Below, piece after piece: positions 5,148 through 64,000 of a stretch of DNA of 64,000 nt. The stretch covers positions 6,296 through 70,295 of the forward strand of contig JBDRAN010000002.1 of assembly GCA_043823745.1 (NCBI GenBank). The letters are read 5' to 3'. The notes under the pieces were generated by a model. The model was not told where the DNA came from. It did no database searches and worked only from the letters and a program-made list of their open reading frames with translations. Numbering within the stretch: the stretch's first letter is position 1; the number at the start of each line of letters is the position of its first letter. Source of the stretch: Candidatus Omnitrophota bacterium. GTDB taxonomy: Bacteria; Omnitrophota; Gorgyraeia; Duberdicusellales; 4484-171. The translations under genes were made by a program, and so were the position numbers.

Positions 5148-5236
5148 AAATGATTCCGGAGATTAGGTAAAGATTCCAGAGATTATGAAATCCCGTAATC
5201 TTTCTTTAATCTCTGTAATCTAATTAAAGGTTTTCA

Positions 5237-6460
5237 ATGTTATTCTCAAAAAGTTTTATTCCGACAACCCGGGAAGTGCCCAAAGATATTGAAGCAAAGA
5301 GCCACATTATGGCCTTGCGCGCGGGGCTTCTCTATATGGCTTCGGCAGGGATCTATTCGTATCTTCCTTTAGGCTACAAAATTTTACGTAAGATTGAGAG
5401 TATTATTCGAAAGCATATGAATGCCACCGGCGCGCAGGAGCTCTTCATGTCGGCCTTGCAGCCCATTGATATCTGGGAGAAAACCGGCAGAGATAAAACG
5501 CTTTCCGAGGTGATGGTGCGCTTTAAGGATCGCCGGGGAAGGGATTTGTGCCTTGGCCCGACGCATGAGGAGATGATCACCGAGATCGTTAAAAAGTATG
5601 TTTTTTCCTATAAACAACTTCCGCTTACGCTCTATCAGATACAGACTAAATTTAGAGATGAACCGCGTCCGCGTTTCGGATTACTTCGTACCTGTGAGTT
5701 TATCATGAAAGATGCGTATAGTTTTGATGCCACCGAAGCCGGCCTCACCGAAAATTACCAGAAGATGCTTGCCGCGTATCAGAATATTTTTAAAGAATGC
5801 GGTCTTAACTTCGTAATGATCGAGGCTGACTCCGGCGCGATGGGTGGAAGCGTTTCTCATGAGTTTTTAGTGGAGGCGGCTATCGGAGAGGATATTCTGT
5901 ACTATTGCCCCGGGTGCAATAAATACGGTAAAACGGAAGGCTCCTGTCTCACTTGTCAAGGTGCCATGAGCGCGCGAACCATGATCGAGATCGGCCATAT
6001 TTTTAAACTCGGGACAAAGTATTCACTCGCTCAGGAAGCACTTTTTCTTAATCGGGAAGGCGCGCGCCTGCCGCTTATTATGGGTTGCTATGGAATAGGG
6101 GTGAGCAGGTTGCTTCCTGCAATTATTGAAACTAACAGCGACGACAAGGGGATTATCTGGCCTGCTTCGGTAAGTCCCTTTGATGCGACGGTGGTCGTCG
6201 TGGGGGAGAGCCTTACGTCCCAGGCGCTGACACTTGCCGACGTGCTTACGAAAGAAGGTTTTGATATTCTTGTGGATGAGCGCAACGAGAGTGCGGGTGT
6301 TAAATTCAACGATGCATTGCTTCTGGGCAACCCCTATACACTTATTATCGGAAAAGGGTACGCTGCCTCAGGAAAGATTGACGTCGAGGCGCGCGCAACG
6401 AAAGAAAAAGTAAGCTTAACACAAGAGGAACTTATTACTTTTTTGCATGAAAAGCGGTGA
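5237..6460 (+). CDS. proS: Prolyl-tRNA synthetase, short form lacking the INS editing domain
   Basis: N-terminal LRAGLLYMASAGIYSYLPLGYKILRKIE is a ProRS signature with class II motifs. Only 407 aa. A CPGC...CLTC insert sits where the INS domain normally lies. Confidence 0.8.
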   Translation: MLFSKSFIPTTREVPKDIEAKSHIMALRAGLLYMASAGIYSYLPLGYKILRKIESIIRKHMNATGAQELFMSALQPIDIWEKTGRDKTLSEVMVRFKDRRGRDLCLGPTHEEMITEIVKKYVFSYKQLPLTLYQIQTKFRDEPRPRFGLLRTCEFIMKDAYSFDATEAGLTENYQKMLAAYQNIFKECGLNFVMIEADSGAMGGSVSHEFLVEAAIGEDILYYCPGCNKYGKTEGSCLTCQGAMSARTMIEIGHIFKLGTKYSLAQEALFLNREGARLPLIMGCYGIGVSRLLPAIIETNSDDKGIIWPASVSPFDATVVVVGESLTSQALTLADVLTKEGFDILVDERNESAGVKFNDALLLGNPYTLIIGKGYAASGKIDVEARATKEKVSLTQEELITFLHEKR

Positions 6461-22921: not shown

Positions 22922-25900
22922 ATGGCTCACAGCGAGTTTGTCCACCTCCATGTCCACACCCAATACAGCCTCTTAGACGGCGCCTGTATCCTCGAGAGAC
23001 TCATCGAGAAGGCGGCAAAGTTTAAGCTTCCGGCTTTGGCGATTACCGACCACGGCAATATTTACGGCGCGATAAAATTTTATAAGCTCTGCATGGATAA
23101 AGGGGTAAAACCCATTATCGGGTGTGAAGCCTATATTGCACCAGGCTCGCGCCTTAAAAAAGAATATAAGCCCAACGAGAAGACGAATCATCACCTTATC
23201 CTGCTCGCCAAGGACGAAGAGGGGTACCACAATTTAGTGCGCCTGGTTTCGCTCGGCCATCTTGACGGTTTCTACTATCGTCCGCGTATCGATAAAGAAA
23301 TACTCACCCAGTATAGTAAGGGGCTCATCGGCTTAAGCGCGTGCTTAAAGGGCGAGGTGGCCTCAGCTATTGTCGCCGGAAGGATTAATGACGCCTATAA
23401 AATAGCTGATGAATATTTGAATATTTTCGGCCGCGGGAATTTCTATCTTGAGGTGATGGACAACGGCCTGCCCGAGCAGCATCGGGTTAACCAGTGTTTA
23501 GTTGCGATGTCTAAGGACCTGGGTATACCGATCGTATGCACCAATGATGTGCATTATCTTGAGCAAGATGAATCGTTCGCGCAGGAGGTGCTCCTGGGAA
23601 TTCAGACACAGACGACGCTCGATGACCCTAATCGTTTTAAGTTCAACAGTAACACGTTTTATTTTAGAAGCCCCGAAGAGATGCAGACGATCTTCAAAGA
23701 CATTCCGGGCGCAAGCCGTAATACGCTTGAAGTAACCCAGAAATGTAATGTAGTCATGGATTTTACAAAACTGCACCTACCGCATTTTGCCATACCCGGA
23801 GGCGAGAGCGAGGAGAGTTTCTTGCGCCGGCTTGTGTTTGAGAATGTTGCCAAGCGTTATCCGGCCGTGGGTGCTGAGGTTACGCAACGGCTTGAATATG
23901 AGCTTGGGGTGATTTCGAAAACGGGTTTTTCGAGTTACTTCATCATTGTGTGGGATCTGATTAAATTTGCCAAGGAAAATAATATTCCGGTTGGGCCAGG
24001 CCGAGGCAGCGCGGCCGGAAGTATCGTGAGTTATATTCTGGGAATTACCGATATCGACCCGCTTCGTTACGATTTACTTTTTGAGCGATTCTTGAATCCC
24101 GAACGTATCAGCATGCCTGATATCGATATCGATTTCTGTTACGAACGCCGGTCGCGCGTTCTTGAGTACGTCGGCAAGAAGTATGGTAAGGATAATGTAG
24201 CGCAAATTATTACGTTTGGAACGATGCTTGCCCGCGCGGTGGTGCGGGATACCGGTCGTGTGATGGGCTTTAGCTACACCGATGTCGATAAGATCGCAAA
24301 GATGATACCGCAGGTTCCCGGCCACCAGATCACCTTAAAAGAGGCGGTTGCTACCAATCCCGATCTTGAAGCAATTTATAATAGCGACGATAACATAAAG
24401 CGTCTTATCGATGTCGCGTCAAAACTTGAGGGCCTTTCCCGTCATGCGTCAACGCATGCGGCAGGCGTGGTTATATCAGATACGCCGCTTATTGAGCGTA
24501 TCCCCCTTATACGCGGTTCGGAAGGGGAAGTGGTGACCGGTTTCGATATGGAGTCTCTTGAGAAGACAGGCCTTCTGAAAATGGACTTTTTAGGACTTAA
24601 AACGTTAACGGTTATCGATGAAACGGTAAAGATTGTGAAACGTACCCATGGCACCATGATCGATATCCATGCGTTACCGTTCGATGATAAGAAAACGTTC
24701 CAGCTTCTCGGCGCCGGTGACACGATTGGGGTGTTCCAGCTTGAAAGCAGGGGGATGCGGGATATTTTAAACAAATTGATACCGACCCAATTTGAGGATT
24801 TGATCGCGGTGCTCGCCCTGTATCGGCCGGGACCATTAGGCAGCGGCATGGTCGATGATTTTATTGACCGCAAGAACGGAAAAAAAGGGGTTACGTATAC
24901 CCATCCACGACTTGAACCGATACTTAAAGAAACCTACGGTATTATTCTGTATCAGGAACAGACGATGCAGATTGTTTCACATCTTGCGGGTTTCAGTCTA
25001 TCCCGCGCCGATCTCCTGCGTAAAGCTATCGGTAAGAAAATTCCCGAGATAATGGAAGAGCAGCGCAACCTGTTTGTGCACGGCTGCGCTAAGAATGCTA
25101 TTTCAGCAAAGATCGCGAATCAGATCTTTGATTTAATTGATTATTTCTCGGGGTATGGATTTAATAAATGCGTTACGGGCGACACTAAAGTAATCGATGC
25201 ACAGAGTGGAGGGTTTATCACGCTGCAGGAGCTTTATGAAAATAGATCGATTGATTTTACTTTTGGGTTCAATAAAGATTTTAAAATCGAGAAACTACGT
25301 ATCATGGATGTGGTAGCAAATGGAGTAAAGTCTGTATATGCAGTAGCGACTTCGTTAGGTAAGGAAATAGAAGCTACCGCAAATCACCCTTTCCTGACCA
25401 TACATGGCTGGAAAAAATTAGAGGATCTTAAAAGTGGAGAACGAATTGCTTTGCCTCGCGTGTTCCCTTCCGTAGGCAAGGAGTCTATAGAGCCTTATAA
25501 ACTTATTGCGTTAGCGGGAATTATCTCTGAAGGCAATACGTGTCATCCTTCAGGAGTATATTTTTATGCTGCAAATCAACGTTTCTTTAATGATTTCGTA
25601 AAAAGCGTAAAATGTTTCCCGCATACGTTGCCCACTATTATAAGGCGTAGAAATATTTTCGAGGCATATTGCGGTACAGGCAGAGACGCTCGTTTTCTTA
25701 AAGGCAATATTCCCTGGAATAAGAGATGTGGTGTTAGTTGCGCAGAAGAAGTAATGATCCGTTCGGGTTTCCGGGTGTGGCTGGAAGAATTGGATCTGAT
25801 AGGGAAAAAAGCTGATGAAAAATTTATACCCGGTTTTATATTTCGACTCGATAATGAGTCATTGAAGTTATTTGTGGGGCGCCTATGGTCTGGAGATGGT

Positions 25901-27682
25901 TTTATTTTTAGCAAACAGAATACGTTGCCTTTTTATGCTTCGTCTTCACATAAGATAGCGCTTTCATTACATGACCTTTTGCTGCGCTTTGGAATCATAA
26001 GTAAGATTTATCAAAAGAAATTTAAATATCATTATAAAGGGGAAATGGATATTAAAAAAGGCTATGTGCTTATGGTGCATGGCGGAGTGAACATTGACAA
26101 TTTTATAGCGCACATTTGTCCGTATATTGTTGGTAGAGAGAAGGCGATAGTGCATCTGAAAGAATACTACAGAAAGGTTTCAAAGAATAAAGAAAGTAAA
26201 GACACTATTCCTCAAGAGATAAAATTTACAGTGCAGAGGCTTAAGGAAGAAAAAGGAATTTCCTGGAGACGTTTGCAGGGGGAATGCGGCCTCTCGATGA
26301 GAGAGTTTGTGGGAGGTGTCCACAAATATAAAAAAGGATTCAGAAGAAGCACTATTAAGAAGTTAGGAATATTTTTTGGTTCTGATGAACTTCTTTCTGC
26401 CGCGTCTTCTGAGGTGTATTGGGATGCTATCACTTCGATAAAATATGCCGGCCCTAAGCCCACGTATGATTTACAGATAGAGAAATATCATAATTTCATT
26501 GCTAATGGCATAGTGGTGCATAATTCACATTCAACCGCGTACGCGCTTATCTCCTATCAGACCGCGTATCTAAAAGCAAATTTTGGTGCTGAGTTTATGG
26601 CAGCGCTTTTAACCAGCGAACGAAATAATACGGATAAGATCCGTGAATATGTGAATGAAGCAGGCCGTATGGGTATCAAGGTGCTTCCGCCGGATATCAA
26701 TACCAGTTTTGCTAACTTTACCGTTACTGATGACGGTAATATCCGGTTTGGATTGCTCGCGATTAAAAATGTCGGTGGGGCTGCACTTACGAGTATTATT
26801 GAGGTGCGTAAAGCCGCAAAATTTGGCGGTATTTTTGATTTTTGCGAGCGCGTGGATTCACGTACGGTAAACAAAAAAGTAATCGAAAGTCTCATTAAAT
26901 CAGGAGCAATGGATACGTTTGGTCTTCGCCGCGCGCAGATGGCGGCTATTCTTGATGGGGTCTTAAGCCGCGGGGCCGGGAAAAAGGATGCTTCTCAGCT
27001 TATGTTATTCTCTGCGCCAAAAAAAGAAGTAGTTCCCGACGTGGCGGAGTGGCCGCTTGCCCAAATTCTTAATTTTGAAAAAACCCTTCTGGGTATGTAT
27101 ATCACCAGCCACCCTTTACATGCGTACGGGACGCTTGTTAAACATATCGCGCGTGAAGAAATTGCTGCTCTCTATGAAGGTGAACGGGCCGGCGAGGTGA
27201 TTGTGTGCGGGGTGCTTGAGAAGGTTAAGGTCATTACGACCCGCAAGGGTAATGACCGGATGGCGATCGTAAAGATTGAGGATGATACTGCGGGTCTTGA
27301 CGTATTTGTATTTCCCCGTCTTTTTGAAGAGTGCAATTCTTTTTTAAAAGAAAAAGCCGTCGTGCTGCTCGTGGGCAAGCTTGAGTCCAAGGAGAAAGTT
27401 CCCAAGATTCTTGCTTCCAAGGTTATCCTTATGGAAAACATCGCTGCAAGCATAAAACAGGTTAACATTACCATCGAGAAGAACAAATTCCCGCTCGATA
27501 AGCTGCGCGGTATTTTCGTAAAAAGCAGAGGTACGATCCCCGTTGTCTTTACCCTCAAAAACTCAAAGATGGAAGGCATTAAGATCAAAACAGCCAATAA
27601 TTTTTTCCTTAACCCCAGCGATGATGTGCTCAAGGAGCTCGATGCGCTCATCGGGCAGGAAAACCTATCACTTACGCTTTAA
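22922..27682 (+). CDS. dnaE: DNA polymerase III alpha subunit interrupted by an in-frame intein
   Basis: PHP domain (HLHVHTQYSLLDG) and polymerase core. The conserved GYGFNK/SHSTAYAL motif is split by a 452-aa insertion. The extein alone is about 1134 aa. Confidence 0.9.
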   Translation: MAHSEFVHLHVHTQYSLLDGACILERLIEKAAKFKLPALAITDHGNIYGAIKFYKLCMDKGVKPIIGCEAYIAPGSRLKKEYKPNEKTNHHLILLAKDEEGYHNLVRLVSLGHLDGFYYRPRIDKEILTQYSKGLIGLSACLKGEVASAIVAGRINDAYKIADEYLNIFGRGNFYLEVMDNGLPEQHRVNQCLVAMSKDLGIPIVCTNDVHYLEQDESFAQEVLLGIQTQTTLDDPNRFKFNSNTFYFRSPEEMQTIFKDIPGASRNTLEVTQKCNVVMDFTKLHLPHFAIPGGESEESFLRRLVFENVAKRYPAVGAEVTQRLEYELGVISKTGFSSYFIIVWDLIKFAKENNIPVGPGRGSAAGSIVSYILGITDIDPLRYDLLFERFLNPERISMPDIDIDFCYERRSRVLEYVGKKYGKDNVAQIITFGTMLARAVVRDTGRVMGFSYTDVDKIAKMIPQVPGHQITLKEAVATNPDLEAIYNSDDNIKRLIDVASKLEGLSRHASTHAAGVVISDTPLIERIPLIRGSEGEVVTGFDMESLEKTGLLKMDFLGLKTLTVIDETVKIVKRTHGTMIDIHALPFDDKKTFQLLGAGDTIGVFQLESRGMRDILNKLIPTQFEDLIAVLALYRPGPLGSGMVDDFIDRKNGKKGVTYTHPRLEPILKETYGIILYQEQTMQIVSHLAGFSLSRADLLRKAIGKKIPEIMEEQRNLFVHGCAKNAISAKIANQIFDLIDYFSGYGFNKCVTGDTKVIDAQSGGFITLQELYENRSIDFTFGFNKDFKIEKLRIMDVVANGVKSVYAVATSLGKEIEATANHPFLTIHGWKKLEDLKSGERIALPRVFPSVGKESIEPYKLIALAGIISEGNTCHPSGVYFYAANQRFFNDFVKSVKCFPHTLPTIIRRRNIFEAYCGTGRDARFLKGNIPWNKRCGVSCAEEVMIRSGFRVWLEELDLIGKKADEKFIPGFIFRLDNESLKLFVGRLWSGDGFIFSKQNTLPFYASSSHKIALSLHDLLLRFGIISKIYQKKFKYHYKGEMDIKKGYVLMVHGGVNIDNFIAHICPYIVGREKAIVHLKEYYRKVSKNKESKDTIPQEIKFTVQRLKEEKGISWRRLQGECGLSMREFVGGVHKYKKGFRRSTIKKLGIFFGSDELLSAASSEVYWDAITSIKYAGPKPTYDLQIEKYHNFIANGIVVHNSHSTAYALISYQTAYLKANFGAEFMAALLTSERNNTDKIREYVNEAGRMGIKVLPPDINTSFANFTVTDDGNIRFGLLAIKNVGGAALTSIIEVRKAAKFGGIFDFCERVDSRTVNKKVIESLIKSGAMDTFGLRRAQMAAILDGVLSRGAGKKDASQLMLFSAPKKEVVPDVAEWPLAQILNFEKTLLGMYITSHPLHAYGTLVKHIAREEIAALYEGERAGEVIVCGVLEKVKVITTRKGNDRMAIVKIEDDTAGLDVFVFPRLFEECNSFLKEKAVVLLVGKLESKEKVPKILASKVILMENIAASIKQVNITIEKNKFPLDKLRGIFVKSRGTIPVVFTLKNSKMEGIKIKTANNFFLNPSDDVLKELDALIGQENLSLTL
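25169..26524 (+). mobile_element. Intein with a LAGLIDADG homing-endonuclease domain inserted in DnaE (Cys1 ... His-Asn, followed by Ser+1)
   Basis: Block A CVTGDTKV directly after GFNK. A TxxH block B (ATANHPF). LAGLIDADG-like motifs LAGIISEGN and LWSGDGFIF. Terminal VVHN followed by SHS, which restores the DnaE motif. 1356 nt, in frame. Confidence 0.85.
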
Positions 27683-27816
27683 CCTAAAAAAAGGTATTCG
27701 GACTGGCCGGGCATGAATGTGCAGCCGTTACCCTGCAAAACCGACCAGGAATTTTGCAGAAAACACGATTTTGTGCTCCGTCGCACGTAGCGGCGCTTTT
27801 TTGCAGGTATGATTTT

Positions 27817-27910
27817 GGAAAAAAGCGAAAAACTCATAATTTCATGATATAATTCATAAATGGGTTTATCCGGCCTCATAAACGCAATAATCAAAACATT
27901 CATCATAAAA
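27817..27910 (+). repeat. Direct repeat copy A (about 94 bp): duplicate of the AAR-like gene's promoter plus first 17 codons
   Basis: About 93% identical to 30903-30997. Encodes MGLSGLINAIIKTFIIK then diverges to a stop after 29 aa. Confidence 0.85.
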
Positions 27911-28075
27911 CATTTAAGTCTGAAAAACCTCTCGTTAACATTAGCCGCTTAACGCATTTGCCTTTTTGTTCTAGCCCGACAAAATAGCATTCTTTTGGCT
28001 GATTTTTCTGATATAATTACGTAGGTATAATCCACTGCGGGGCATAATGCCTCTAAGCCACGGCATAAGCAAAAT

Positions 28076-29164
28076 ATGGAAAGAAAAAAAACTATTCTTT
28101 TGACCGGCGCTACTGGTCTTTTGGGTTCGTATTTATTGAAACTTTTTCTCGAAGAAGGCCATAAAGTTTATGCCCTCGCAAGAAGCAAAGATCATATTAA
28201 TGCAACCAGCAGGGTTATAAATTCCTTACGATTGTGGGATGAAACTATCTCTCCATCAAGCTATGCAGGAAAATTGATCGTAGTAGATGGTGATATTACA
28301 TCTTCTGACTTCAAAATTGAAACAAAAGAGATCATTGCACTTTTTCGATCGGAAGTTGAAATGATTTTTCATTGCGCAGCCTTAACGCTTTTTCGAGCCC
28401 CCCTAGAGATAATGCGAAAAATAAATGTAGAAGGTACTAAGAATATTTTAGATTTTTCTTTGACTTGCCTGCGGCTAAAAAATATAAATTATATAAGTAC
28501 AGCTTTTGTCGCGGGCAACAAAAATGGAATCGATTTTGACGAAAATATGTTGGAGTTGGGCCAGGGTTTTTATAATACCTACGAACAAACAAAATATGAA
28601 GTAGAAATATTGCTTAAAGATTACCAAAAAAAAGGCCTGATAATTTCTATTTTTCGTCCCAGCGTAGTAATGGGTGATTCTAAAGAGGGAAAGACTAATA
28701 ATTTCCATCTTTTTTATGAACCAACTCGTTTTTTTTCCCAAGGATTCTTTCCCGCGTTTCCTATGAATTTAGATTGTTCGTTGAACCTTATAAATATAGA
28801 TATCGCCGCTAAAGCAATTTTTATTCTAAGCGATATGGAAAAATCTGACGTTTATCATATCGTTTCCCCGGAAGATACTAATATGCATTTTTTTGCTAAA
28901 CTCGCCTCTTCTTATTTCAATTTCGAAATGCCGGAATTTATTCCTGAAGAGAAATTTGACTTCAGTGCCTGGACTGATGGGCAAAAATTATTAGGCGGAC
29001 CTTTCGTTCCTTATTGTAATTATAAGACGAAATTTGTATCACATAAAACACAACAAATTATGAGCCAATATAATTTTATATATCCTCAAATCAACGAGAG
29101 TAATCTTACTAAAATATTTGAATACTGCGATAAAGTTGGTTTTATAAAAAGGAAAAGACTATAA
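28076..29164 (+). CDS. Fatty acyl-CoA/thioester reductase-like SDR (NAD_binding_4 / male-sterility-type reductase domain)
   Basis: ILLTGATGLLGSYLL...YALAR...VVDGDIT...IFHCAA...NVEGT pattern typical of thioester-reductase domains. 362 aa. AT-rich island. Confidence 0.65.
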   Translation: MERKKTILLTGATGLLGSYLLKLFLEEGHKVYALARSKDHINATSRVINSLRLWDETISPSSYAGKLIVVDGDITSSDFKIETKEIIALFRSEVEMIFHCAALTLFRAPLEIMRKINVEGTKNILDFSLTCLRLKNINYISTAFVAGNKNGIDFDENMLELGQGFYNTYEQTKYEVEILLKDYQKKGLIISIFRPSVVMGDSKEGKTNNFHLFYEPTRFFSQGFFPAFPMNLDCSLNLINIDIAAKAIFILSDMEKSDVYHIVSPEDTNMHFFAKLASSYFNFEMPEFIPEEKFDFSAWTDGQKLLGGPFVPYCNYKTKFVSHKTQQIMSQYNFIYPQINESNLTKIFEYCDKVGFIKRKRL

Positions 29165-29171
29165 ATCAAAC

Positions 29172-30803
29172 ATGAATATCTTTTTTATACTTAGCCTGCT
29201 TATTGCAATCACTAGTTTAGGATTATCTTTTTTTCTGCTGTCTAAAACATGGCAAAAACCGGTCAATAGAGTTTTTGGCCTTTTTGCTATCAGTATAGGA
29301 GTTTGGGGTTTAGGCGGGAGTGTCATATCTATTATCCCTAAAGCTAATTATCAATTAGCTCAGTTTTGGTGGCAAATTGCTTACACCGGTATAATTCTTA
29401 TACCTGTACTTTATGCACGGTTTATTTTTGAATTCCTCGATCTGAAGAGGAAATTTTTTATTCGTACCATGTATCTAATAGGATTAATTTTCTTATTGCT
29501 AAATTGGTTCGATGGATCAAGATTTTTCTTAGGTGATTTAAAATTTATGTTTGGTCAATTCTATTGGCATGACTGGATTGAATCAAAAAGTATAAGTTAT
29601 ATTATTTTTTATCTAAGTTTTTATTGGTGTCTTCTGAGTTATCCTTTCTTGCTTTTATTATTAAATTTCAAAAAAACAACGGGATTGCGACGCGAACAAA
29701 CGAAATATATTATTTTCGGATCTATATTTGGCTGGTTGGGGGGCGAATCAAATTTTCTGCCCGATTTTGGTATCAACATTTACCCCTTTCTCAACTTACT
29801 TACGCCTTTTTACACATTGATTGTTGCCTACGCCATCCTCAAGCATCGCCTCATGGACATAGACATCGTTATTAAGAGAACAACCGTTTACTCAATTCTG
29901 GTCTCCTTAATTACTATTCTCTATTTTACAATTATTTACATCACAGAATTACTCTTTCGACGGTTTGTTGGCTATAAATCAATACCCATGGCATTGGGTT
30001 TTATTTCTCTTTTTACTTTGATATTCCAACCTCTGAAGAATTTTATCCAGTCCTTTATAGACAAATATTTCTTCAAAGGCTCGCAAGCTACCCTAGCAGA
30101 AGAACTCCAAAAAGCGCAGGAAGAGCTAAAAAGGGCTGAACGTCTAAAGGCAGTAGGCACTCTTGCTGCCGGTATGGCGCACGAGATAAAAAATCCGTTA
30201 ACAGGGATTATGACATTTACGGAGTATCTGCCTACCAAGTATACGGACCCTGCTTTTATAGAAAAATTCCATAAAATAGTTTCTACGGAAGTAAATAAGA
30301 TAAACTCAATTGTCGAACAGCTCTTAGATTTCTCTAAACCAAAACCACTGAAATTACAAGAAGCTAATATACACAATATCATAGATCAGACACTTTCTCT
30401 GCTTAATAATGACATCATTAAGTACAAAATCAATGTGAGCAGAAATTACGACAACACCTTTCCTATGCTGCATATAGACCCTAACCAAATACAACAGGTA
30501 TTTTGTAATTTTTTCCTTAATGCCATTGACGCTTTAAAAGAAGGGGGTGAATTGACCATTGCTACCCAACAGCTACCAGATAATGCTGAAATCACTATCA
30601 GCGACACCGGCCAAGGTATCCCTAAGAAAGATTTAGAACATATCTTTGACCCATTTTATACTACAAAAGAGACAGGGACAGGCTTGGGGATGTCGATTAT
30701 TTACGGAATAATTAAAGAACATAAAGGCATTATTGGTGTAGAAAGTGAGGTAAATAAAGGAACGACGTTTACGATAAAATTACCTTATTGTATCAATTTT
30801 TGA
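29172..30803 (+). CDS. Polytopic membrane sensor histidine kinase (HK1)
   Basis: N-terminal about 300 aa with at least 6 TM helices ending in YAILKHRLMDIDIV. HisKA H-box AAGMAHEIKNPL. HATPase_c (GTGLGMSII). Confidence 0.85.
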   Translation: MNIFFILSLLIAITSLGLSFFLLSKTWQKPVNRVFGLFAISIGVWGLGGSVISIIPKANYQLAQFWWQIAYTGIILIPVLYARFIFEFLDLKRKFFIRTMYLIGLIFLLLNWFDGSRFFLGDLKFMFGQFYWHDWIESKSISYIIFYLSFYWCLLSYPFLLLLLNFKKTTGLRREQTKYIIFGSIFGWLGGESNFLPDFGINIYPFLNLLTPFYTLIVAYAILKHRLMDIDIVIKRTTVYSILVSLITILYFTIIYITELLFRRFVGYKSIPMALGFISLFTLIFQPLKNFIQSFIDKYFFKGSQATLAEELQKAQEELKRAERLKAVGTLAAGMAHEIKNPLTGIMTFTEYLPTKYTDPAFIEKFHKIVSTEVNKINSIVEQLLDFSKPKPLKLQEANIHNIIDQTLSLLNNDIIKYKINVSRNYDNTFPMLHIDPNQIQQVFCNFFLNAIDALKEGGELTIATQQLPDNAEITISDTGQGIPKKDLEHIFDPFYTTKETGTGLGMSIIYGIIKEHKGIIGVESEVNKGTTFTIKLPYCINF

Positions 30804-30851
30804 TACAAGAGGTTAATTCTATTCCATACGTATACGTACAATCAATAAATG

Positions 30852-30886
30852 GCGATTCTACTAGAATCGCTCTTTGACTTTTTTGA
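30852..30886 (+). terminator. Possible intrinsic terminator after HK1
   Basis: GCGATTCTA-c-TAGAATCGC inverted repeat followed by TCTTTGACTTTTTT. Confidence 0.4.
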
Positions 30887-30902
30887 CACAGTGACGCAGA
30901 CG

Positions 30903-30997
30903 GGAAAAAAGCGAAAAACTCATAATTTCATGATATAATCAACAAAATGGGTTTATCCGGCCTCATAAACGCAATAATCAAAACATTCATCATAAAA
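30903..30997 (+). repeat. Direct repeat copy B (about 95 bp): native promoter and 5' end of the AAR-like gene
   Basis: GGGAAAAAAGCGAAAAACTCATAATTTCATGATATAAT...ATGGGTTTATCCGGCCTCATAAACGCAATAATCAAAACATTCATCATAAAA matches 27817-27910. Confidence 0.85.
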
Positions 30998-32095
30998 TTA
31001 TTGCCTCGGTTTATCCTTCGGAAATTAGGCTACAATCGAGGAATCGCTTTTATTGCTAATCTTCCTAATACGGCTTCCGTGCCTCTTTCCGTACCTTTCA
31101 GAAAGCTGGTAATCGCAATAATGCGGCAACTTTCGCCGGTTGTTGTTTCTCCCCTAGGTGGTTTTAAGAATAAAGATGGGGCGGAGGTCAAGGGGTGGGT
31201 AATCCTTTGTCTGCTCACTGCCGCCGAAATTCTAACGCATGCAGATTTCGCAAGAAAACGAGTCGTGCAGGCCGCTTGCTTGGCAGAACGCATGGGCGTG
31301 GATATTATAACATTAGGCGCTTTTACCTCGATTGTAACGCATGACGGTTTGGACTTAATAGGTAAAACAAAAGTTGGGATTACAACCGGCAATCCATACT
31401 CCGCAATCGTGGCAATTCAAAATATGCGAGAGGCTGCTCGGTTGGTAAATTTAGACATTATCAATGCAACGGTCGCAATCGTCGGTGCTGCTGGGTCTGT
31501 TGGATCAGGTTGTGCTCAGTTTCTGTTAGGAAAGGTAAAAAAGTTTTTGCTTATAGATTGGCAATATAATGCTTTGCGCGAGTTATATGATACGATTAAT
31601 CCAAAATCTACTAGTGTTGAAATGTTAAAAGATGTTCAGGGTATTGCTGCGGCTGATATTGTTATTCTTGTCACAAGTTCTGTCACCGGAATTATCGGAA
31701 AAGACTTATTAAAACCAGGCGCAATAGTAATAGACGGCGCAAATCCCCCCAATATTTCTAATGAAACGCTAAAATCAAGAAGTGATATTCTTGTGATTTC
31801 TTCCGCAATCGTAAAGGTGCCCGGTTTGCGTCATCCTTTTAATTTTAATCTGGGCTCAGGGGAAACATTCGGCTGTGTCGGTGAAGCTTTTGCTCTTGCC
31901 TGGACAAAGCATAAAGGTAATTATGCATTAGGTAAGGTTAGCGTACAACAGATGCAAGATATTGAAAGTATCGCCAGCGACGCAGGCTTTACCATCGCTC
32001 CGTTTCGTAATTCTCTTGGCTTAATTTCCAAAGAACAGATTGCTCATGTCCGTAACATAATACATTCTAATTATTTGAATACTGCGATAAAATAG
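30947..32095 (+). CDS. Acyl-ACP reductase (AAR)-family protein, homolog of the cyanobacterial alkane-pathway reductase
   Basis: Blocks ITLGAFTSIV, ITTGNPYSAIVAI, ATVAIVGAAGSVGSGCAQFL, IVIDGANPPN and FGCVGEAFALAW match AAR recalled from memory (ISALGGFTSII, FTTGNTHTAYV, ATVAVVGATGDIGSAV, LIDGGYPKN, FACFAEAML). Apparently leaderless (TGaTATAAT 7 nt before the ATG). Confidence 0.65.
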   Translation: MGLSGLINAIIKTFIIKLLPRFILRKLGYNRGIAFIANLPNTASVPLSVPFRKLVIAIMRQLSPVVVSPLGGFKNKDGAEVKGWVILCLLTAAEILTHADFARKRVVQAACLAERMGVDIITLGAFTSIVTHDGLDLIGKTKVGITTGNPYSAIVAIQNMREAARLVNLDIINATVAIVGAAGSVGSGCAQFLLGKVKKFLLIDWQYNALRELYDTINPKSTSVEMLKDVQGIAAADIVILVTSSVTGIIGKDLLKPGAIVIDGANPPNISNETLKSRSDILVISSAIVKVPGLRHPFNFNLGSGETFGCVGEAFALAWTKHKGNYALGKVSVQQMQDIESIASDAGFTIAPFRNSLGLISKEQIAHVRNIIHSNYLNTAIK

Positions 32096-32117
32096 GCTTT
32101 ATAACCAAAAATAAAAC

Positions 32118-33194
32118 ATGCCTGCAAGAAAAAAACAATCAATAAACACAATAGTAGAAAAGATCGGTGAGAGTAAAAAACGAAAAATAATAATCGATTT
32201 TTTCTCTAAAGATATAGAAAATTTTGACCAGAGCATAAAGAATCTAGAGAAAAAAACACCCCTCAAGTCTTTCCCTAATAACAAAATTTGCTTATATGTT
32301 TTCCGACTTATGAATAAGTTATTAGATAAGGCACGAGTAATTGAAGAAATAATTAGCGATAAAACGCTTTTAAAAGCGATAAAGCAAGCGTTTAGAGAAC
32401 AAATAGAATATTTTCTTGGCAAGAGCACGTTAATGCGTTGGGGGTATTATAAACCCTCCGGGCATCCCGGCGACTATGAATTAATAGAAGCATTTTATGA
32501 TAATATGCCTCTTTCCAAAGGCATAGGTTTTTGTGGTGACAAATATATTCTTCAAGACGGCTATGTAGAAGCAGTTAAAATCAGAAAAGATTTGATGCTG
32601 CAAAAACTGGCTTCTTTTATAAAGGATAATACATCAAAACATCTAAATATTATGAATCTTGGGTGCGGATCAAGCAGGGAAATACGAGAGTTGTTTTCTA
32701 CTGCTCATGTCTTAATTCCTCGCGACAAAAGAATAACATTTACCTTAATTGATTGGGACGAAAAAGCTCTAGAGTTTTCAAAGCAATCGTTATTAAAATA
32801 TCGAAGTAACGATGCTATTGAATTCATATTTTTTAAGATAAACGTGCTCGATTTATATAAAAATTCTTCTCAATATACAAAAGCCCTGATGAAGCAGGAT
32901 TTGATTTATAGTATTGGTTTGGCAGATTATATGCCAAATTTAGTTTTTGGCGAAATAATAAAATTTTGTTTTAGTTTATTAAAAAAGAAAGGTACTCTAA
33001 CTATAGCGCACAAAAATATTAAAGTGCATAAAAGTGTTGCTTCCGATTGGGCATGCGATTGGCATTTTTATCCTCGCAGTATCGAGGATGTAATTAAAAT
33101 TATTGACGAAAGTTTTGAAGACCATAAACGTAAAGTAGAAACTGTCAGTGAAAAAACAAAGCATATTTTTTTCGTGGATATAAGTAAACCATGA
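32118..33194 (+). CDS. Class I SAM-dependent methyltransferase with an about 170-aa N-terminal extension
   Basis: Motif I LNIMNLGCGSSREI, acidic motif II (TLIDWDE), and a later motif (GTLTIAH). 358 aa. Confidence 0.6.
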   Translation: MPARKKQSINTIVEKIGESKKRKIIIDFFSKDIENFDQSIKNLEKKTPLKSFPNNKICLYVFRLMNKLLDKARVIEEIISDKTLLKAIKQAFREQIEYFLGKSTLMRWGYYKPSGHPGDYELIEAFYDNMPLSKGIGFCGDKYILQDGYVEAVKIRKDLMLQKLASFIKDNTSKHLNIMNLGCGSSREIRELFSTAHVLIPRDKRITFTLIDWDEKALEFSKQSLLKYRSNDAIEFIFFKINVLDLYKNSSQYTKALMKQDLIYSIGLADYMPNLVFGEIIKFCFSLLKKKGTLTIAHKNIKVHKSVASDWACDWHFYPRSIEDVIKIIDESFEDHKRKVETVSEKTKHIFFVDISKP

Positions 33195-35260
33195 AGTCAA
33201 ATTTTTATTTTGTGTCACATTTAGCCGCAGCATTACTTGTTCTGTTTTTTTCATTCTTTGTTTTTATAAAAAATAAAAAATCAAAAGTTAATCTTAGTTT
33301 TTCAATATTTGGATCAACAATTTTTAGCTGGCTTTTATTTTCTTCTTTTGCAGCTATTTCCGCCGAAAAAGAGATGAATCTTTTTTGGTTCAAAATGAGT
33401 TATATGGGTATTATTCTTATACCGCATACTTTCTTGTATTTTGTATCGTGCGTAACAGAAAAAAAGAATACTTTTATTATATTTTTCAGTTGGCTCTATG
33501 CCTTTAGTTTCATTCTATTGTTATGGTTTACTAATTTATTTATAGTCGGTATTTATGAATATCCTTGGGGGGTTTATCCTCGTGCTTTTCCAATCTCACA
33601 CCTTCTATTTTTATCATCATTTATTATTTTGTTTGTATGCGCAATCCGTGCTTTAATCTCGAGAGTGATTGAAAAAGCTAATGTTACTACAGAAAAATTA
33701 AGAGCCACTTATATACTTATGGGAACTTTATTCGGAGTTTGCGGAAGTGTAGATTTTTTAGCTAACTATGGGATAAACTTTTATCCTTCTGGCTTCATTT
33801 TTATGATACTTTATCCTTCGATTCTAAGTTATGCCATCCTCAAATACCGCTTAATGGATATTCGCGTTGCTTTAACCCGCGCGGGAATTTTCATTGCTGT
33901 TTATACGTTTGTTTTAGGCATCCCGCTTTTAATTGGTTTCAAAACAGATAAATGGCTCTGGGCGATGCTTTTAATGGGCGTTCTTTCAAGCGTAGGGCCG
34001 TTTGTGTATAGCTATTTACGCCAACAGATTGAAAATGCGATCTTTAAGGAACAACAAAGATATCAGCAAGCCATCAAAGAATTAGCTAAACGGATGGTAC
34101 AGATAAGAGACATGGCCACTTTGTCTAAGACGATTATTTCCGATGTGTTCAAAGTCGCGCAACCGGAATTTATTGTCCTGTACATATTTTCCAAAGATAG
34201 TAAATCATACGTACTCCAGGACAACAGTATAAAAAATAATTCTACGTTTGAGACAGACATTTCAGCGGATTCAATACTCGTAGAGAATTTATCCCGTAAC
34301 AAACGGCCGGTGATTCTTGAGAGCGGTTTTTCCTTAGATTTACCGCTGGAAACGCTTATTGTGCCTTTCTTCGCGGAAAGCAGCCTCTATGGCATAATGT
34401 TTATCGGTCCTAAGCCGAAAAAGGCTGTTTATATAGAATCAGATTTCATTGCTTTTGATATTCTTTCTTCTCAGGCGTCCTTAGCCATCGAAAATTGTCT
34501 CTTCTGGCAGGAGGAAAAAACTCGAATAGCAAAAGAAGAGCAGATAAAACGAATGCAGGCCATGGATCATTTCTCTGCGGCCATGGCTCATGAAATAGAC
34601 AATCCCATCACTGCAATAGCCGGGCAATTGCGTTTGATAGAGCTTATCCTTAGCGAAAAATTTAAAGACTTGATTCCTGCCCAAGACTTAGCTGAATTAA
34701 CTACTTATGCCGGTACAACGGTAACTAATCTTGGAAGAATATCGAAAATGATAAAGGCAGTAAGGGAATTTTCCAGGCAAGATACGGGCGAATTTTCGCT
34801 TTTATCAGTGGAGGAGGCTGTCGATTTTACTTTAGCGATAGTTGGGCCGCAGGTCAAATACAAAAAAGTATCTTTCACCAAAGAAATAGAAGATAACCTT
34901 TCTGTACGCGGCAACAGGATTTATCTGGCGGAAGCTTTGATGAACTTAATCGTCAATAGTATGCATGCGGTTCAAGATAAACCGGAGTGGCAGGGAAAAA
35001 TAGATTTAAAAGTTAAAAAAGCCGGTAGAGAAAAATGTCTTATTGAAATACGCGATAATGGTTATGGTATAAAAAAACATCTTCTTGAAAATATTTTCTT
35101 AGATTTTGTCAGCACTAAGGCTTCTTCTGAAGGAACGGGGATGGGGTTAGCTAGAGTAAGAAAAATAATCCAAATGCACAGCGGCAAAGTATGGGCGCAA
35201 AGTGAAGGCGCCGGTAAAGGGGCAACTTTTTTTATCGAACTTCCCTTGGCAGAGAAATAG
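33191..35260 (+). CDS. Polytopic membrane sensor histidine kinase (HK2), paralog of HK1 with an extra cytoplasmic (GAF/PAS-like) region
   Basis: The N-terminal TM domain ends in YAILKYRLMDIRVAL, the same motif as HK1. H-box SAAMAHEIDNPI. HATPase_c GTGMGLARV. 689 aa. 4-nt overlap with the methyltransferase. Confidence 0.85.
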   Translation: MKSNFYFVSHLAAALLVLFFSFFVFIKNKKSKVNLSFSIFGSTIFSWLLFSSFAAISAEKEMNLFWFKMSYMGIILIPHTFLYFVSCVTEKKNTFIIFFSWLYAFSFILLLWFTNLFIVGIYEYPWGVYPRAFPISHLLFLSSFIILFVCAIRALISRVIEKANVTTEKLRATYILMGTLFGVCGSVDFLANYGINFYPSGFIFMILYPSILSYAILKYRLMDIRVALTRAGIFIAVYTFVLGIPLLIGFKTDKWLWAMLLMGVLSSVGPFVYSYLRQQIENAIFKEQQRYQQAIKELAKRMVQIRDMATLSKTIISDVFKVAQPEFIVLYIFSKDSKSYVLQDNSIKNNSTFETDISADSILVENLSRNKRPVILESGFSLDLPLETLIVPFFAESSLYGIMFIGPKPKKAVYIESDFIAFDILSSQASLAIENCLFWQEEKTRIAKEEQIKRMQAMDHFSAAMAHEIDNPITAIAGQLRLIELILSEKFKDLIPAQDLAELTTYAGTTVTNLGRISKMIKAVREFSRQDTGEFSLLSVEEAVDFTLAIVGPQVKYKKVSFTKEIEDNLSVRGNRIYLAEALMNLIVNSMHAVQDKPEWQGKIDLKVKKAGREKCLIEIRDNGYGIKKHLLENIFLDFVSTKASSEGTGMGLARVRKIIQMHSGKVWAQSEGAGKGATFFIELPLAEK

Positions 35261-35275
35261 AAAGGAGGATTAATT

Positions 35276-35662
35276 ATGGAGAAGCGCAAGGTTCTTATAG
35301 TGGAGGATGAACAGGACATTTGCCAGTTTATGAAAAGGATGCTTGAATTAAAAGGATGCGAAGTTTTTACCGCTCTCACCGCGCAAGAAGGCTGGGAAAT
35401 TTTTCAAAGAGAAAAGCCCCAAGCTTGCTCTATCGATATTCTTCTTTCCCATTCAGAATTTGACGGCACAGAACTTTTAAGAAGAATAAGGCAAATAGAT
35501 AAAAACGTTTTGTGCGTAATGGTAACGCGTATCGATGACAAAAAAACTATGAATGAAGTGGAAGAACTAGGGATTGACGGAATTTTCATAAAACCTCCCG
35601 CGGCAGGAGAGCTGGATAATTTAATCGACCAGCTCGCGCATGGCAAAAGAAAGGAGGCATAA
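35276..35662 (+). CDS. Stand-alone response-regulator receiver domain (CheY-like)
   Basis: VLIVEDEQD acidic pocket, candidate phospho-Asp in SIDILLS, conserved Thr (CVMVT) and Lys (FIKP). 128 aa with no output domain. Confidence 0.75.
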   Translation: MEKRKVLIVEDEQDICQFMKRMLELKGCEVFTALTAQEGWEIFQREKPQACSIDILLSHSEFDGTELLRRIRQIDKNVLCVMVTRIDDKKTMNEVEELGIDGIFIKPPAAGELDNLIDQLAHGKRKEA

Positions 35663-35664
35663 CG

Positions 35665-36000
35665 ATGGCAAATCCATTACCAAATGAAGCTGAACTTTAT
35701 GCAAGAATGGAAAAAGAGCATATCAACGTGCATCCGCTTGTATGGGAATTCATTAATCATCATGTGAGAAATGATCTTAACTGGATTACGATGTGCATAG
35801 GTTTGCATCGTTCAACGCCGCGCTGGATACTGCGGCTTGCTTCTTCTCTTATCAGCCTCTTATACAAAATCTCCCGTCAACCGGGAGAGCCGCCCCCTGA
35901 TCTTTTGAGCGCTTTTAACGGCACTATTGAGAGAGTAAAAAATATCGACAGATTTTTAAAAAATTTGCGAGAGAAAACCTGTCCTGCTTACGATCTTTAA
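35665..36000 (+). CDS. Hypothetical protein, translationally coupled to the receiver
   Basis: 111-aa ORF starting 3 nt after the receiver stop. No recognisable motif. Confidence 0.4.
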   Translation: MANPLPNEAELYARMEKEHINVHPLVWEFINHHVRNDLNWITMCIGLHRSTPRWILRLASSLISLLYKISRQPGEPPPDLLSAFNGTIERVKNIDRFLKNLREKTCPAYDL

Positions 36001-36103: not shown

Positions 36104-36376
36104 ATGCGAAAACGCGATATTGTATTAAAAATCAGCCAGGATACGGGTATAAAACAGGTTGTCGTTAAAGATGTAGTGCAACGCACGTTTGATACTATTT
36201 TTGAGACGCTTAAGAACGGGAATCGTATTGAGCTGCGAAATTTCGGTGTTTTCCTTGTTAAGAAAAGAAAGAAACGCATCGGTAGAAACCCTAAAACCGG
36301 CGCGGTCGTGCCCGTCCCTGAGAGACTCACCGTTGTATTCAAGCCTGGCCTGGGAATGAAGAAGGTCTTTAGATAA
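36104..36376 (+). CDS. HU/IHF-family DNA-binding protein
   Basis: 90 aa. Signature RNFGVF...R.GRNPKTG...V...F.PG beta-arm. Confidence 0.85.
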   Translation: MRKRDIVLKISQDTGIKQVVVKDVVQRTFDTIFETLKNGNRIELRNFGVFLVKKRKKRIGRNPKTGAVVPVPERLTVVFKPGLGMKKVFR

Positions 36377-36388
36377 CCCCACTGGTTC

Positions 36389-37675
36389 ATGAAAAAAACA
36401 TATAGTGGCGTACGGGGAACGACTGATTTTGCTCCACCAGCGGCAGCATTGTTTAGCGAAATATGCGTCCGCGCCCGAGCGATAGGTAACCTTTTCGGCT
36501 ACGAAGAGATTATATTGCCTGTTCTTGAAGAAGAGGGAGTTTTTAGCCGCGGCGTAGGGCAAACCAGCGACATCGTTGAAAAGCAGATGTTTAGGCTCGC
36601 GCGGCGTTCCGAAGAAGCATCAGGCGACATTGTGTTGCGGCCGGAAGGAACTGCGCAGGTAGTGCGATTCTATCTTGAGAACGCCCTCAACAAACAAAGC
36701 GACTTTTATAAGTTTTTTTATATCGGTCCGATGTTTCGCGGAGAGCGGCCGCAAAAAGGAAGGCTGCGTCAGTTTCATCATATCGGCGCCGAGGCTATCG
36801 GTTCAGACAGCGTGCATCTTGACGCGGAAATGATTATGCTGGCATTCGCCATACTTGAGGCGGCGGGAGTAAGAGACAAAGAACTCGTTGTCAATACCTT
36901 AGGGTGCGCTGCCGATAAAGAAAGATTTTCTCAGGCGCTTACGAACGATTTGCGTACGCATCAGGCTGCGTTATGTCCCGACTGCGGCCGGCGCCTTTCC
37001 AAAAACCCCTTGCGGGTTCTTGATTGTAAACAGGATCAATGCAAGCGCCTTGTCTCAACGTTGGGGCTTTCCGATAAGCATCTGTGTGAAGATTGTAAAC
37101 GGCAATTTAAGCTGTTGCGTGAACTTCTTGACGCATTGGCGATACCGTACCGGCATAATCCCCATTTAGTGCGCGGCCTTGATTACTATACGAATACGGT
37201 ATTTGAAATTACCTCAAAACGTTTGGGCGCGCAAGATGCGATCGGCGCCGGCGGCCGCTATAATAATTTAATCAGCCAATTGGGCGGCCCCGATGTTCCG
37301 GCGCTTGGCTTTGCGCTTGGTCTTGAGCGGGTGATATTGGCGCGCGAGGCGTCACAGGACGCCCGTGGTTTCGATGTTTTTGTTGTTTCGATCGGTGAAG
37401 CCGTGCGCGGCAAAGGGTTTAGCCTTTTGGGGGCAGTACGAGCCGCAGGTATTGCCGCGGATATGGATTATTGCGCGAAGTCGCTTAAAGCGCAAATGCG
37501 TTGCGCGACGCGCCGCGGCGCGCGTTTCGTGGTAATTATCGGCGAGGAAGAACAGAGGGAGAACGTTGTTGTGATAAAGAATATGGAGGCGTCAACGCAA
37601 GAGAAAGTTTCACAGGATGATTTTGTTGAATTCTTGCGTCAACGTATTACCGTTACACCCAGGAGCGTTCTATGA
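36389..37675 (+). CDS. hisS: Histidyl-tRNA synthetase
   Basis: Class II motifs ([14 protein letters not shown]) and an anticodon-binding domain. 428 aa. Confidence 0.85.
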
Positions 37676-47924: not shown

Positions 47925-48500
47925 ATGGACGAAGGAAAATTATTTGTAAATCTTCACAATATTCTTAAAGGATATAAAAACAAATGTAGATTTTTAACCG
48001 AGCTAAAAACTTCATTATTTACTAAAAAAACATCTTATCAGCTTGATTTTGATATTATAATCATTCAGTTGCAAAACAGGGTAGAAGACATTTTTGACCG
48101 TATTCTAAGAACTTATACAAGACCTAAGCAAAAAGAGGAATATTTATATAACGATGAGATAATGAAAGATACTGCAGCAAAATTTACCCCCGAGGAGGTT
48201 AGGAACTTGATTATTTTTAATCTTGGTTTTAGTGAGAAAAAGAATTTGATTTTCAAGCTTTTTAAGGTATCTAAATCGACGAAAACGATAATTGATAAAC
48301 TTAATGAAATGAGAAATGCAATTGCCCATAGATATAGCGAAGACGATAAAAGATTTATTTATAAAGAAAAGAACGTTTTACATGATCCAAACACACTTAT
48401 TAATTTTTTTAGAGACAATTTCGAGGGTATTATTGAGATTCTTGAAATCGAAACTAAGCTACTAGATGCCATAGATAAAGCCGAAGGTGAACTTGGTTGA
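47925..48500 (+). CDS. Hypothetical protein with an HEPN-type Rx4H motif (possible RNase, toxin or Abi)
   Basis: C-terminal MRNAIAHRY fits the HEPN R-x(4-6)-H motif. Predicted all-alpha. AT-rich island. The TTG start at 47895 is also possible. Confidence 0.4.
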   Translation: MDEGKLFVNLHNILKGYKNKCRFLTELKTSLFTKKTSYQLDFDIIIIQLQNRVEDIFDRILRTYTRPKQKEEYLYNDEIMKDTAAKFTPEEVRNLIIFNLGFSEKKNLIFKLFKVSKSTKTIIDKLNEMRNAIAHRYSEDDKRFIYKEKNVLHDPNTLINFFRDNFEGIIEILEIETKLLDAIDKAEGELG

Positions 48501-49042: not shown

Positions 49043-49076
49043 GGAAGCAAGAACGTTGAAACAAAAGGAGTGAAAA

Positions 49077-49565: not shown

Positions 49566-49593
49566 AGGTAAATATCAAAAACAATCAAAGCAA

Positions 49594-49959: not shown

Positions 49960-50114
49960 AATCTTTAGCCGCAAGGCGAGGATTTTTTTTGTTTATGGGT
50001 ATTATAAAAACAAAGTCAGTATTCGGATAGGTTTGAAATGCTCTGGGTAGCTGGTAGAAAGGCAAAAGTTTTAGCATGATGCGAAGGCTAAATGGCGATG
50101 GGTAGGAACGAAGA

Positions 50115-63154: not shown

Positions 63155-64000
63155 ATGAAAGTTTTAGTTATTGGTTCAGGCGGCAGGGAGCATGCGATTG
63201 TTTGGAAAATCGCTCAATCAAAGTTACAGCCTACAATTTTTTGCGCTCCCGGCAACGGCGGTATCGCTGATATCGCGACCTGCATTGATATCAAGGCGGA
63301 TGATGTCAGGGCCTTGTGTGATTTTGCTAAAGTTGAGCATATTGACTTGACTGTGGTGGGGCCGGAAGCGCCGCTTGCGCTTGGTATTGTTGATGAGTTT
63401 ACAAAGCATTCGTGTGCGATATTTGGGCCGAGTAAAGCCGCGGCAGCGCTTGAAGGCAGTAAGGTTTTCGCAAAAGAGTTTATGGCACGCTGGAAGGTGT
63501 CCACCGCTGATTTTAAGGTTTTTACTGATGCCGTCGCGGCGCACGAATACATCGCCCGGCGCGGTGTTCCCTGTGTAGTTAAGGCAGATGGTCTTGCGGC
63601 GGGAAAAGGCGTTGTGGTTGCCGAGAATCTTGACGAGGCGCATGAGGCCGTGGCCGCTATGATGGAGAAAAAAACGTTTGGGATAGCAGGCTCAAAAGTT
63701 ATCATTGAGGATTGTCTGGTGGGCGAAGAAGCTTCGATTATTGCGATTGTGGACGCGCACACGGTCATGATGCTTGCTTCAAGCCAGGACCATAAGCGTG
63801 TCTTTGACGATGATAAAGGCCCTAATACCGGCGGTATGGGTGCGTATTCTCCGGCGCCGATGGTAAGCGAAGAGGTGCTGGGGTGTATACACGCTACCGT
63901 GATCGAACCAATCATCCGGGGATTACGCCAGGACGGCGTTGTGTATCGCGGTGTTCTGTACGCAGGCATTATGCTTACCGCGGCCGGCCCGCAGGTCCTT
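63155..64000 (+). CDS. purD: Phosphoribosylamine-glycine ligase, N-terminal 282 aa (runs off the window end)
   Basis: MKVLVIGSGGREHAIVWKIAQS start and an ATP-grasp region (VVKADGLAAGKGV). No stop in the window, so it is absent from the ORF track. The antisense track ORFs 63214-63969 are its shadows. Confidence 0.85.
   Translation, partial: MKVLVIGSGGREHAIVWKIAQSKLQPTIFCAPGNGGIADIATCIDIKADDVRALCDFAKVEHIDLTVVGPEAPLALGIVDEFTKHSCAIFGPSKAAAALEGSKVFAKEFMARWKVSTADFKVFTDAVAAHEYIARRGVPCVVKADGLAAGKGVVVAENLDEAHEAVAAMMEKKTFGIAGSKVIIEDCLVGEEASIIAIVDAHTVMMLASSQDHKRVFDDDKGPNTGGMGAYSPAPMVSEEVLGCIHATVIEPIIRGLRQDGVVYRGVLYAGIMLTAAGPQVL

Follow-up and report, generated by a model that had tools for sequence, protein, structure and literature searches.

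The gene dnaE of a Candidatus Omnitrophota bacterium, which encodes the alpha subunit of DNA polymerase III, is interrupted in frame by an insert of 452 amino acids (aa). Very probably, this insert is a true class-1 intein that harbors a LAGLIDADG homing endonuclease, and it lies between the equivalents of Escherichia coli K758 and S759. The gene is part of a 64,000-nt stretch of contig JBDRAN010000002.1, which was analyzed as a whole and is called the window here. The intein is common in kind, a new member of an already described type of element.

An in-frame insert at a conserved motif of DnaE

The open reading frame (ORF) of dnaE was recognized from the ORF list and from Pfam and NCBIfam matches, and its product, on public record from a Candidatus Omnitrophota metagenome-assembled genome, is labeled "DNA polymerase III subunit alpha." The frame is open across 4.8 kb with zero stops. 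The Pfam domains PHP, DNA_pol3_alpha, DNA_pol3_finger, HHH_6, and OB all fall outside the insert, and the NCBIfam DnaE models PRK06826/PRK05673 matched above cut-off as two pieces split at aa 750-752. An earlier note on this DNA had judged the ORF of 1586 aa to be about 450 aa too long. This estimate was close, as excision of the 452-aa insert leaves 1134 aa, and DnaE in the nearest relatives measures 1133-1135 aa.

In the precursor, GYGFNK occupies aa 744-749, followed directly by Cys1 of the insert at aa 750 (nt 25169-25171), and the terminal Asn is aa 1201 (ending at nt 26524). The insert ends in ...NGIVVHN, and SHSTAYAL comes directly after it, beginning with the +1 nucleophile Ser (codon at nt 26525-26527; E. 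coli S759 equivalent). The borders in the earlier note (25169-26524) were therefore exact, and the splice-junction residues C1, terminal HN, and S+1 sit where it had placed them. Across the full length, the spliced window DnaE and that of E. coli K-12 share 40% identity, with no alignment gap at the junction (747-FNKSHS-752 in the spliced protein, 756-FNKSHS-761 in E. coli). The insertion therefore lies between the K758 and S759 equivalents, and its removal does restore the conserved motif of the alpha subunit, as had been claimed. The features of the gene, in window positions, are:

22922..27682, + strand: dnaE (DNA polymerase III alpha subunit) precursor ORF, 1586 aa plus stop
22922..25168, + strand: N-extein, aa 1-749, ending ...DYFSGYGFNK (last residue equivalent to E. 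coli K758)
25169..26524, + strand: intein, 452 aa (1356 nt), Cys1 to His451-Asn452, in-frame insertion
25169..25468, + strand: N-terminal splicing (HINT) region, intein aa 1-100, with blocks A (C1) and B; NCBIfam intein_Nterm at precursor aa 750-826
25376..25387, + strand: block B, T70-A-N-H73 (TxxH)
25481..26200, + strand: LAGLIDADG homing-endonuclease core, intein aa about 105-344 (Pfam LAGLIDADG_3, AlphaFold2 topology, Foldseek)
25511..25537, + strand: LAGLIDADG motif 1, LAGIISEGN (aa 115-123), predicted catalytic Glu121
25877..25903, + strand: LAGLIDADG motif 2, GRLWSGDGF (aa 237-245), predicted catalytic Asp243
26201..26422, + strand: helical accessory module, aa about 345-418, four predicted helices
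26423..26524, + strand: C-terminal splicing region, aa 419-452, with blocks F (D434, H441) and G (H451-N452); NCBIfam intein_Cterm at precursor aa 1181-1202
26525..27682, + strand: C-extein, starting with the +1 nucleophile Ser and then the steric-gate His (E. coli H760 equivalent)

The catalytic carboxylates of the E. coli enzyme (D401, D403, and D555) are in the palm domain, outside the interrupted motif. The description of this motif as catalytic, made in the earlier note, thus stands only in the wider sense that it is an active-site motif, the fingers "O" helix with the steric-gate residue His760 (PMC8485763). In E. coli, H760 is the proposed steric gate that contacts the sugar of the incoming deoxynucleoside triphosphate, while S759, in the same helix, packs against the palm domain (PMC8485763). 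The substitutions S759C, S759N, and S759T cause mild to moderate increases in mutation rate, and the majority of substitutions at S759/H760 could not be cloned (PMC8485763).

Splicing blocks and family matches

The insert has the complete set of class-1 intein features: C1, TxxH, blocks F and G, a penultimate His, a terminal Asn, and Ser+1. Blocks A, B, and G had been reported before, and all three are present (C1, T70-A-N-H73, and H451-N452), with block F now added. Intein models from both Pfam and NCBIfam matched at levels well past chance, namely Intein_splicing (E=4e-24, precursor aa 766-1201), intein_Nterm (E=4.8e-11, above cut-off), and intein_Cterm (E=1.5e-9; 37.8 bits vs. a cut-off of 15.6). 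Moreover, all 452 aa, endonuclease included, align to the intein part of NCBIfam PRK07773, an intein-containing DnaB helicase (E=2e-72).

The nearest solved sequences in the PDB are the Npu/Ssp DnaB mini-inteins (E about 1e-23 with a single-sequence query), to which the splicing region is 34-37% identical. Against a profile of the allelic inteins described below, the Npu/Ssp DnaB inteins scored E=1.6e-39. A hidden Markov model (HMM) made from 74 allelic inteins matched a single place in the window, the dnaE insert (E=1e-178), and scanning all six reading frames of the 64,000 nt with this model returned no second intein of the same family. A minus-strand ORF inside the intein (25576..25914) was treated as a mechanical ORF.

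Endonuclease core and accessory module

Pfam LAGLIDADG_3 matched within the insert (E=7.5e-9; 36-39 bits vs. a cut-off of 22.5), and the two LAGLIDADG-like motifs proposed earlier, LAGIISEGN and GRLWSGDGF, agree with both this match and the Foldseek results. We built an AlphaFold2 model of the intein with eight allelic sequences as input (mean predicted local distance difference test [pLDDT] 83, predicted template modeling score 0.84). The sole disordered stretch inside the intein was model residues 179-201, in the nuclease domain, and the nuclease core has an alpha-beta-beta-alpha-beta-beta-alpha-type topology with pLDDT mostly >90. In this model, Glu121 stands at the C-terminal end of a helix (aa 109-121) and Asp243 at the C-terminal end of another (aa 229-243), each followed by Gly, as expected for metal-binding acids.

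When the model was compared with the PDB by Foldseek, the top matches were full-length, endonuclease-containing inteins (TliVMA, 4e-19; PI-PfuI, 3e-16; PI-PkoII; and PI-SceI). Next came DnaB and RecA mini-inteins, matching the two ends, and then I-DmoI and I-Tsp061I, matching the middle. The N- and C-terminal parts of the predicted structure superpose on the DnaB/RecA mini-inteins with a root-mean-square deviation of 1.5-2 Å, consistent with a HINT fold.

The accessory module (GISWRRLQGECGLSMREFVGG...KGFRRSTIKKLG) follows the LAGLIDADG core and precedes the C-terminal splicing block, and G, F, K, G, R, and T positions in it are invariant in the allelic inteins. The module had zero matches in Pfam even at E<=10. 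It resembles a helix-turn-helix add-on and is probably the DNA-binding region of the endonuclease.

The intein is absent from most close relatives

To place the insert among close relatives, we used the 119 DnaE clusters nearest to the spliced window DnaE (56-83% identity; Omnitrophota where the source is named). Uninterrupted YGFNKSH was present in 113 of them. Five clusters carried an allelic intein of 450-452 aa, 55-65% identical to that of the window, in exteins that were 67-74% identical, and one had an intein at another place in DnaE. The objection that relatives might share these 450 aa as a conserved DnaE domain, raised in the earlier note, therefore does not hold. A word-indexed protein search with the intein overlooked its nearest relatives (55-65% identity), which were recovered only by searching with the extein. 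One Omnitrophota DnaE of 1523 aa (P0222; 70% identity) has FNRSHS intact and an intein at a different, upstream site that matches Pfam Intein_splicing, LAGLIDADG_3, and Hom_end.

The nearest relative (P0136) has a DnaE with 83% aa identity, the same guaB-guaA-dnaE order as the window, and no intein. Its DNA reads ...TTCAATAAA/TCACATTCC..., with the 1356 additional bases of the window exactly at the slash. In the intein-free relative L083, the DNA flanking this point is contiguous (...TACGGCTTCAATAAA/TCACATTCCAGTGCC...). Base composition also sets the insert apart, as GC content at third codon positions (GC3) is only 0.36 in the intein. The extein has 0.52, and 19 other window genes range over 0.46-0.54. 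The low GC3 of the intein looks foreign and is consistent with a foreign origin. We infer that the window intein arrived by homing.

Allelic inteins are widespread in bacteria

Two peptide patterns of the intein family, built on the first LAGLIDADG motif (E121-N123 included) and on block F (H441-N-F included), were used to scan GTDB representatives, with a single genome for each species. Relatives of the window intein were confirmed in at least 568 species-representative genomes, from which 80 loci were kept for inspection. All 80 had the homologous insertion site, 72 in DnaE and 8 in DnaE2, the error-prone paralogue. The 72 DnaE loci share the N-junction YGFN[KR]/C; the C-junction ...HN/SH[SAT] was read in 70, and the frame ends earlier in 2. 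The 8 DnaE2 loci read YGFPE/C...HN/SHAASFAL. These loci (L053, L056, L062, L065, L069, L076, L077, and L078, with the match at about 4001-5300 in each) come from metagenome-assembled genomes of Myxococcota, Rokubacteria/Methylomirabilota, and Steroidobacteraceae. DnaE2 identity was confirmed for one of them, L053, from the N-extein alone (NCBIfam PRK05672, 902 bits).

The hosts belong to more than 12 phyla and comprise Omnitrophota, Actinomycetota, Planctomycetota, Gammaproteobacteria, Bacteroidota, Myxococcota, Deinococcota, Chloroflexota, Patescibacteria, Elusimicrobia, Eisenbacteria, Methylomirabilota, Gemmatimonadota, and Acidobacteriota. Cultured hosts include Allochromatium humboldtianum DSM 21881 and Deinococcus arenicola. 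Across 74 full-length allelic inteins, C1, T70, N72, H73, E121, D243, D434, H441, H451, and N452 are invariant, as are the motifs E121-G-N and G242-D243-G244. Degenerate copies also exist: in P0012 both the helical module and about 55 aa of the nuclease core are missing, and in P0004 the helical module is missing. The overall pattern is what a homing cycle should produce, in which invasion is followed by vertical descent, decay, and loss.

Many intein-bearing public DnaE entries (P0001-P0019 and P0038) are partial or broken within or beside the intein, under names such as "LAGLIDADG family homing endonuclease, partial" and "OB-fold nucleic acid binding domain-containing protein." The intein therefore seems to be a frequent breakpoint in assembly or gene calling.

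Comparison with known inteins

Inteins at this position belong to a known hot spot. Novikova et al. 2016 tallied 116 PolIII-alpha inteins from nine phyla, and the hot spot that they describe holds five insertion points (a-d, g) inside 75 residues of the fingers, site "a" being that of the cyanobacterial split intein (PMC4760082). Omnitrophota is not among the phyla that this 2016 survey lists with PolIII-alpha inteins (PMC4760082), and our literature search found no paper that mentions inteins together with Omnitrophota. The FNK/SHS site falls within this hot spot (PMC4760082) and may correspond to b, c, d, or g. Swithers 2009, the Thiomargarita paper, and the 2020 review offer nothing specific on the site. 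The allelic DnaE inteins at this site, from Omnitrophota, Deinococcus, Allochromatium, Chloroflexota, Patescibacteria, and others, share host protein, insertion point, and catalytic residues with the window intein. They measure 409-458 aa and are 35-65% identical to it, and this sequence divergence is the sole difference.

The split Ssp/Npu DnaE intein is a more familiar resident of the same protein. It interrupts the same conserved motif and is likewise a class-1 intein with Cys1. However, the wild-type C-extein of the split Ssp intein is CFNK (PMC2664965), so it sits before (C)FNK, 4 residues upstream of the site described here. The split intein is also encoded by two genes, is free of endonuclease, and uses Cys+1, whereas the window intein is one ORF with an endonuclease and Ser+1. 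Split DnaE inteins scored E about 1e-8 against the window-family profile, compared with 1e-39 for DnaB inteins. We therefore rejected the idea that the window intein is an unsplit version of the cyanobacterial one, given the site 4 residues away and a family nearer to DnaB inteins. By sequence, it is a separate, DnaB-intein-like lineage. The earlier note's description of a contiguous rather than split intein agrees with the single ORF and with this difference in lineage and site. Contiguous inteins in DnaE are nothing new: the one in Thermus thermophilus (Tth) DnaE-1 is likewise from a bacterium and has seen experimental use (PMC3359363).

Among solved structures, the Ssp/Npu DnaB inteins (PDB 1MI8 and 4O1R) provide the nearest splicing domains, with the same blocks as the window intein. 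They differ in host protein (DnaB helicase, at an unrelated site), and the solved forms are engineered mini-inteins without a nuclease. PI-SceI, PI-PfuI, PI-PkoII, and TliVMA share the overall plan, a HINT domain with an inserted monomeric two-motif LAGLIDADG nuclease (template modeling score about 0.65). By contrast, their sequences are only 10-17% identical to the window intein, and they have archaeal or yeast hosts, other host genes, and other accessory DNA-binding parts.

Proposed mechanism and alternative explanations

We propose that translation would yield a 1586-aa precursor that cannot be an active polymerase, because the break in its fingers O-helix falls beside the steric-gate His. 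Splicing would begin with a thioester formed by Cys1 at the N-junction, which the +1 Ser would attack to give a branched ester intermediate. Cyclization of Asn452 would then free the intein, and an O-to-N shift would create the ...GYGFNK-SHSTAYAL... bond of a normal 1134-aa DnaE. Once freed, the intein would act as a monomeric LAGLIDADG enzyme of the two-motif type, in which the acids Glu121 and Asp243 bind metal. This enzyme may cut intein-free dnaE at the conserved FNK/SHS-coding DNA, probably aided by the helical module (aa about 345-418), and repair templated on the occupied allele would copy the intein in.

Several points weigh against this account. The GC offset is also seen in another host, where the allelic intein is GC-poor as well (34% vs. 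41%), so low GC may be a general trait and not a sign of recent arrival. For the first 27 loci in the tabulation, identity to the window intein rose with extein identity (Spearman 0.78), so vertical descent with frequent loss, and not present-day homing, may account for much of the spread. The residue invariance is partly circular, as E121-N123 and H441-N-F formed part of the search patterns and C1 and HN/SH were required in junction extraction; the unselected invariant positions are the D243 motif and the T70-x-N72-H73 block. Finally, both splicing and DNA cleavage by the window intein are conclusions from sequence rather than experimental demonstrations.

We predict that the nuclease of the window intein is active, a view we hold with some confidence but well short of certainty. 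The strongest competitor is an intein that splices while its endonuclease is inactive, at a late stage of the homing cycle, and is kept since precise loss from an essential gene is hard. The degenerate allelic copies P0012 and P0004 fit this picture, as does the correlation of intein with extein identity. Moreover, nothing points to very recent transfer, as the nearest allelic intein found was just 65% identical. However, the window copy is full length, with nothing deleted when it is compared with the family; its two catalytic acids are in place, as is the conserved accessory module, and the GC3 of the intein is still far from that of its host. An inactive endonuclease is therefore possible, but we regard it as distinctly the less likely state.

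A second alternative keeps the intein active but gives it a purpose beyond selfishness: if splicing were conditional on redox state, temperature, or stress, the intein would be a post-translational switch on replicase maturation. With the O-helix broken beside the steric gate, polymerase activity would depend strictly on splicing; the intein contains several Cys residues besides C1; and a functional meaning has been argued for the clustering of inteins in replisome active sites (PMC4760082). On the other hand, no specific sequence sign of regulation was seen, and the absence of the intein from 113 of the 119 close relatives fits a parasite better than a regulator. We consider such a switch improbable. 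If it did exist, the occurrence of related inteins at the homologous DnaE2 site could point to a broader role in polymerase choice, with redox or stress gating of replicase maturation extending to wider control of polymerase availability, which is slightly more doubtful again.

The gene might also be chimeric through misassembly of a metagenome bin, or a dnaE pseudogene in the course of decay. These two readings were prompted by the source, a metagenome-assembled genome, and by the many homologous database genes that are fragmented at the intein. Yet the frame is intact and stop-free over its 4.8 kb, the exteins are 83% identical to an intact relative with guaB and guaA synteny kept, and all catalytic residues are intact. 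The identical protein is also recorded under two accessions on two contigs (the longest 78.9 kb), of which we read one 6.1-kb contig. An artefact or pseudogene is thus very unlikely. Least likely by far is an unremoved, lineage-specific domain of DnaE, which has the continuous reading frame and nothing else in its favor, as the insert is missing from the nearest orthologues, matches intein and LAGLIDADG models and folds, and interrupts a helix in which E. coli accepts few changes at S759 and H760 (PMC8485763). We rejected all three readings (conserved domain, pseudogene, and assembly artefact) on this evidence.

Genome context in the window

Beyond the end of dnaE lies a low-GC block (27800-36000; 32-40% GC vs. 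about 47% elsewhere; GC3 0.28-0.36), with HU (36104..36376) and hisS (36389..37675) adjoining its other side. The block encodes an NAD_binding_4 reductase, two 7TM-type histidine kinases, a Shikimate_DH-like protein, a methyltransferase, and a small response-regulator-like ORF. In the relatives L083 and L084, HU directly follows dnaE, and in L083, so does hisS. This adjacency makes the 27800-36000 block look like an inserted island. A second low-GC patch lies at 48000-50000 (34% GC in a 2-kb window).

The window contains 58 ORFs of at least 150 aa, 47 of them on the + strand. Of the 11 others, on the minus strand, ten are nested in longer + strand ORFs, the exception (63214..63969) being near the window end. 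GC skew is positive throughout the window, consistent with one replichore.

Significance

In terms of new biology, the finding adds little, being a further case of a replisome gene occupied by a widespread selfish element. It does correct an annotation, as the mature DnaE of this organism would be 1134 aa, and the intein may help explain why dnaE is so frequently fragmented or "partial" in metagenome bins. A full-length, DnaB-like intein with Ser+1 at the precisely mapped K758/S759 position could also be mined for protein engineering. Finally, because the FNK/SHS site is occupied in hundreds of species from many phyla, and in DnaE2 too, this family offers a good data set for the homing cycle.

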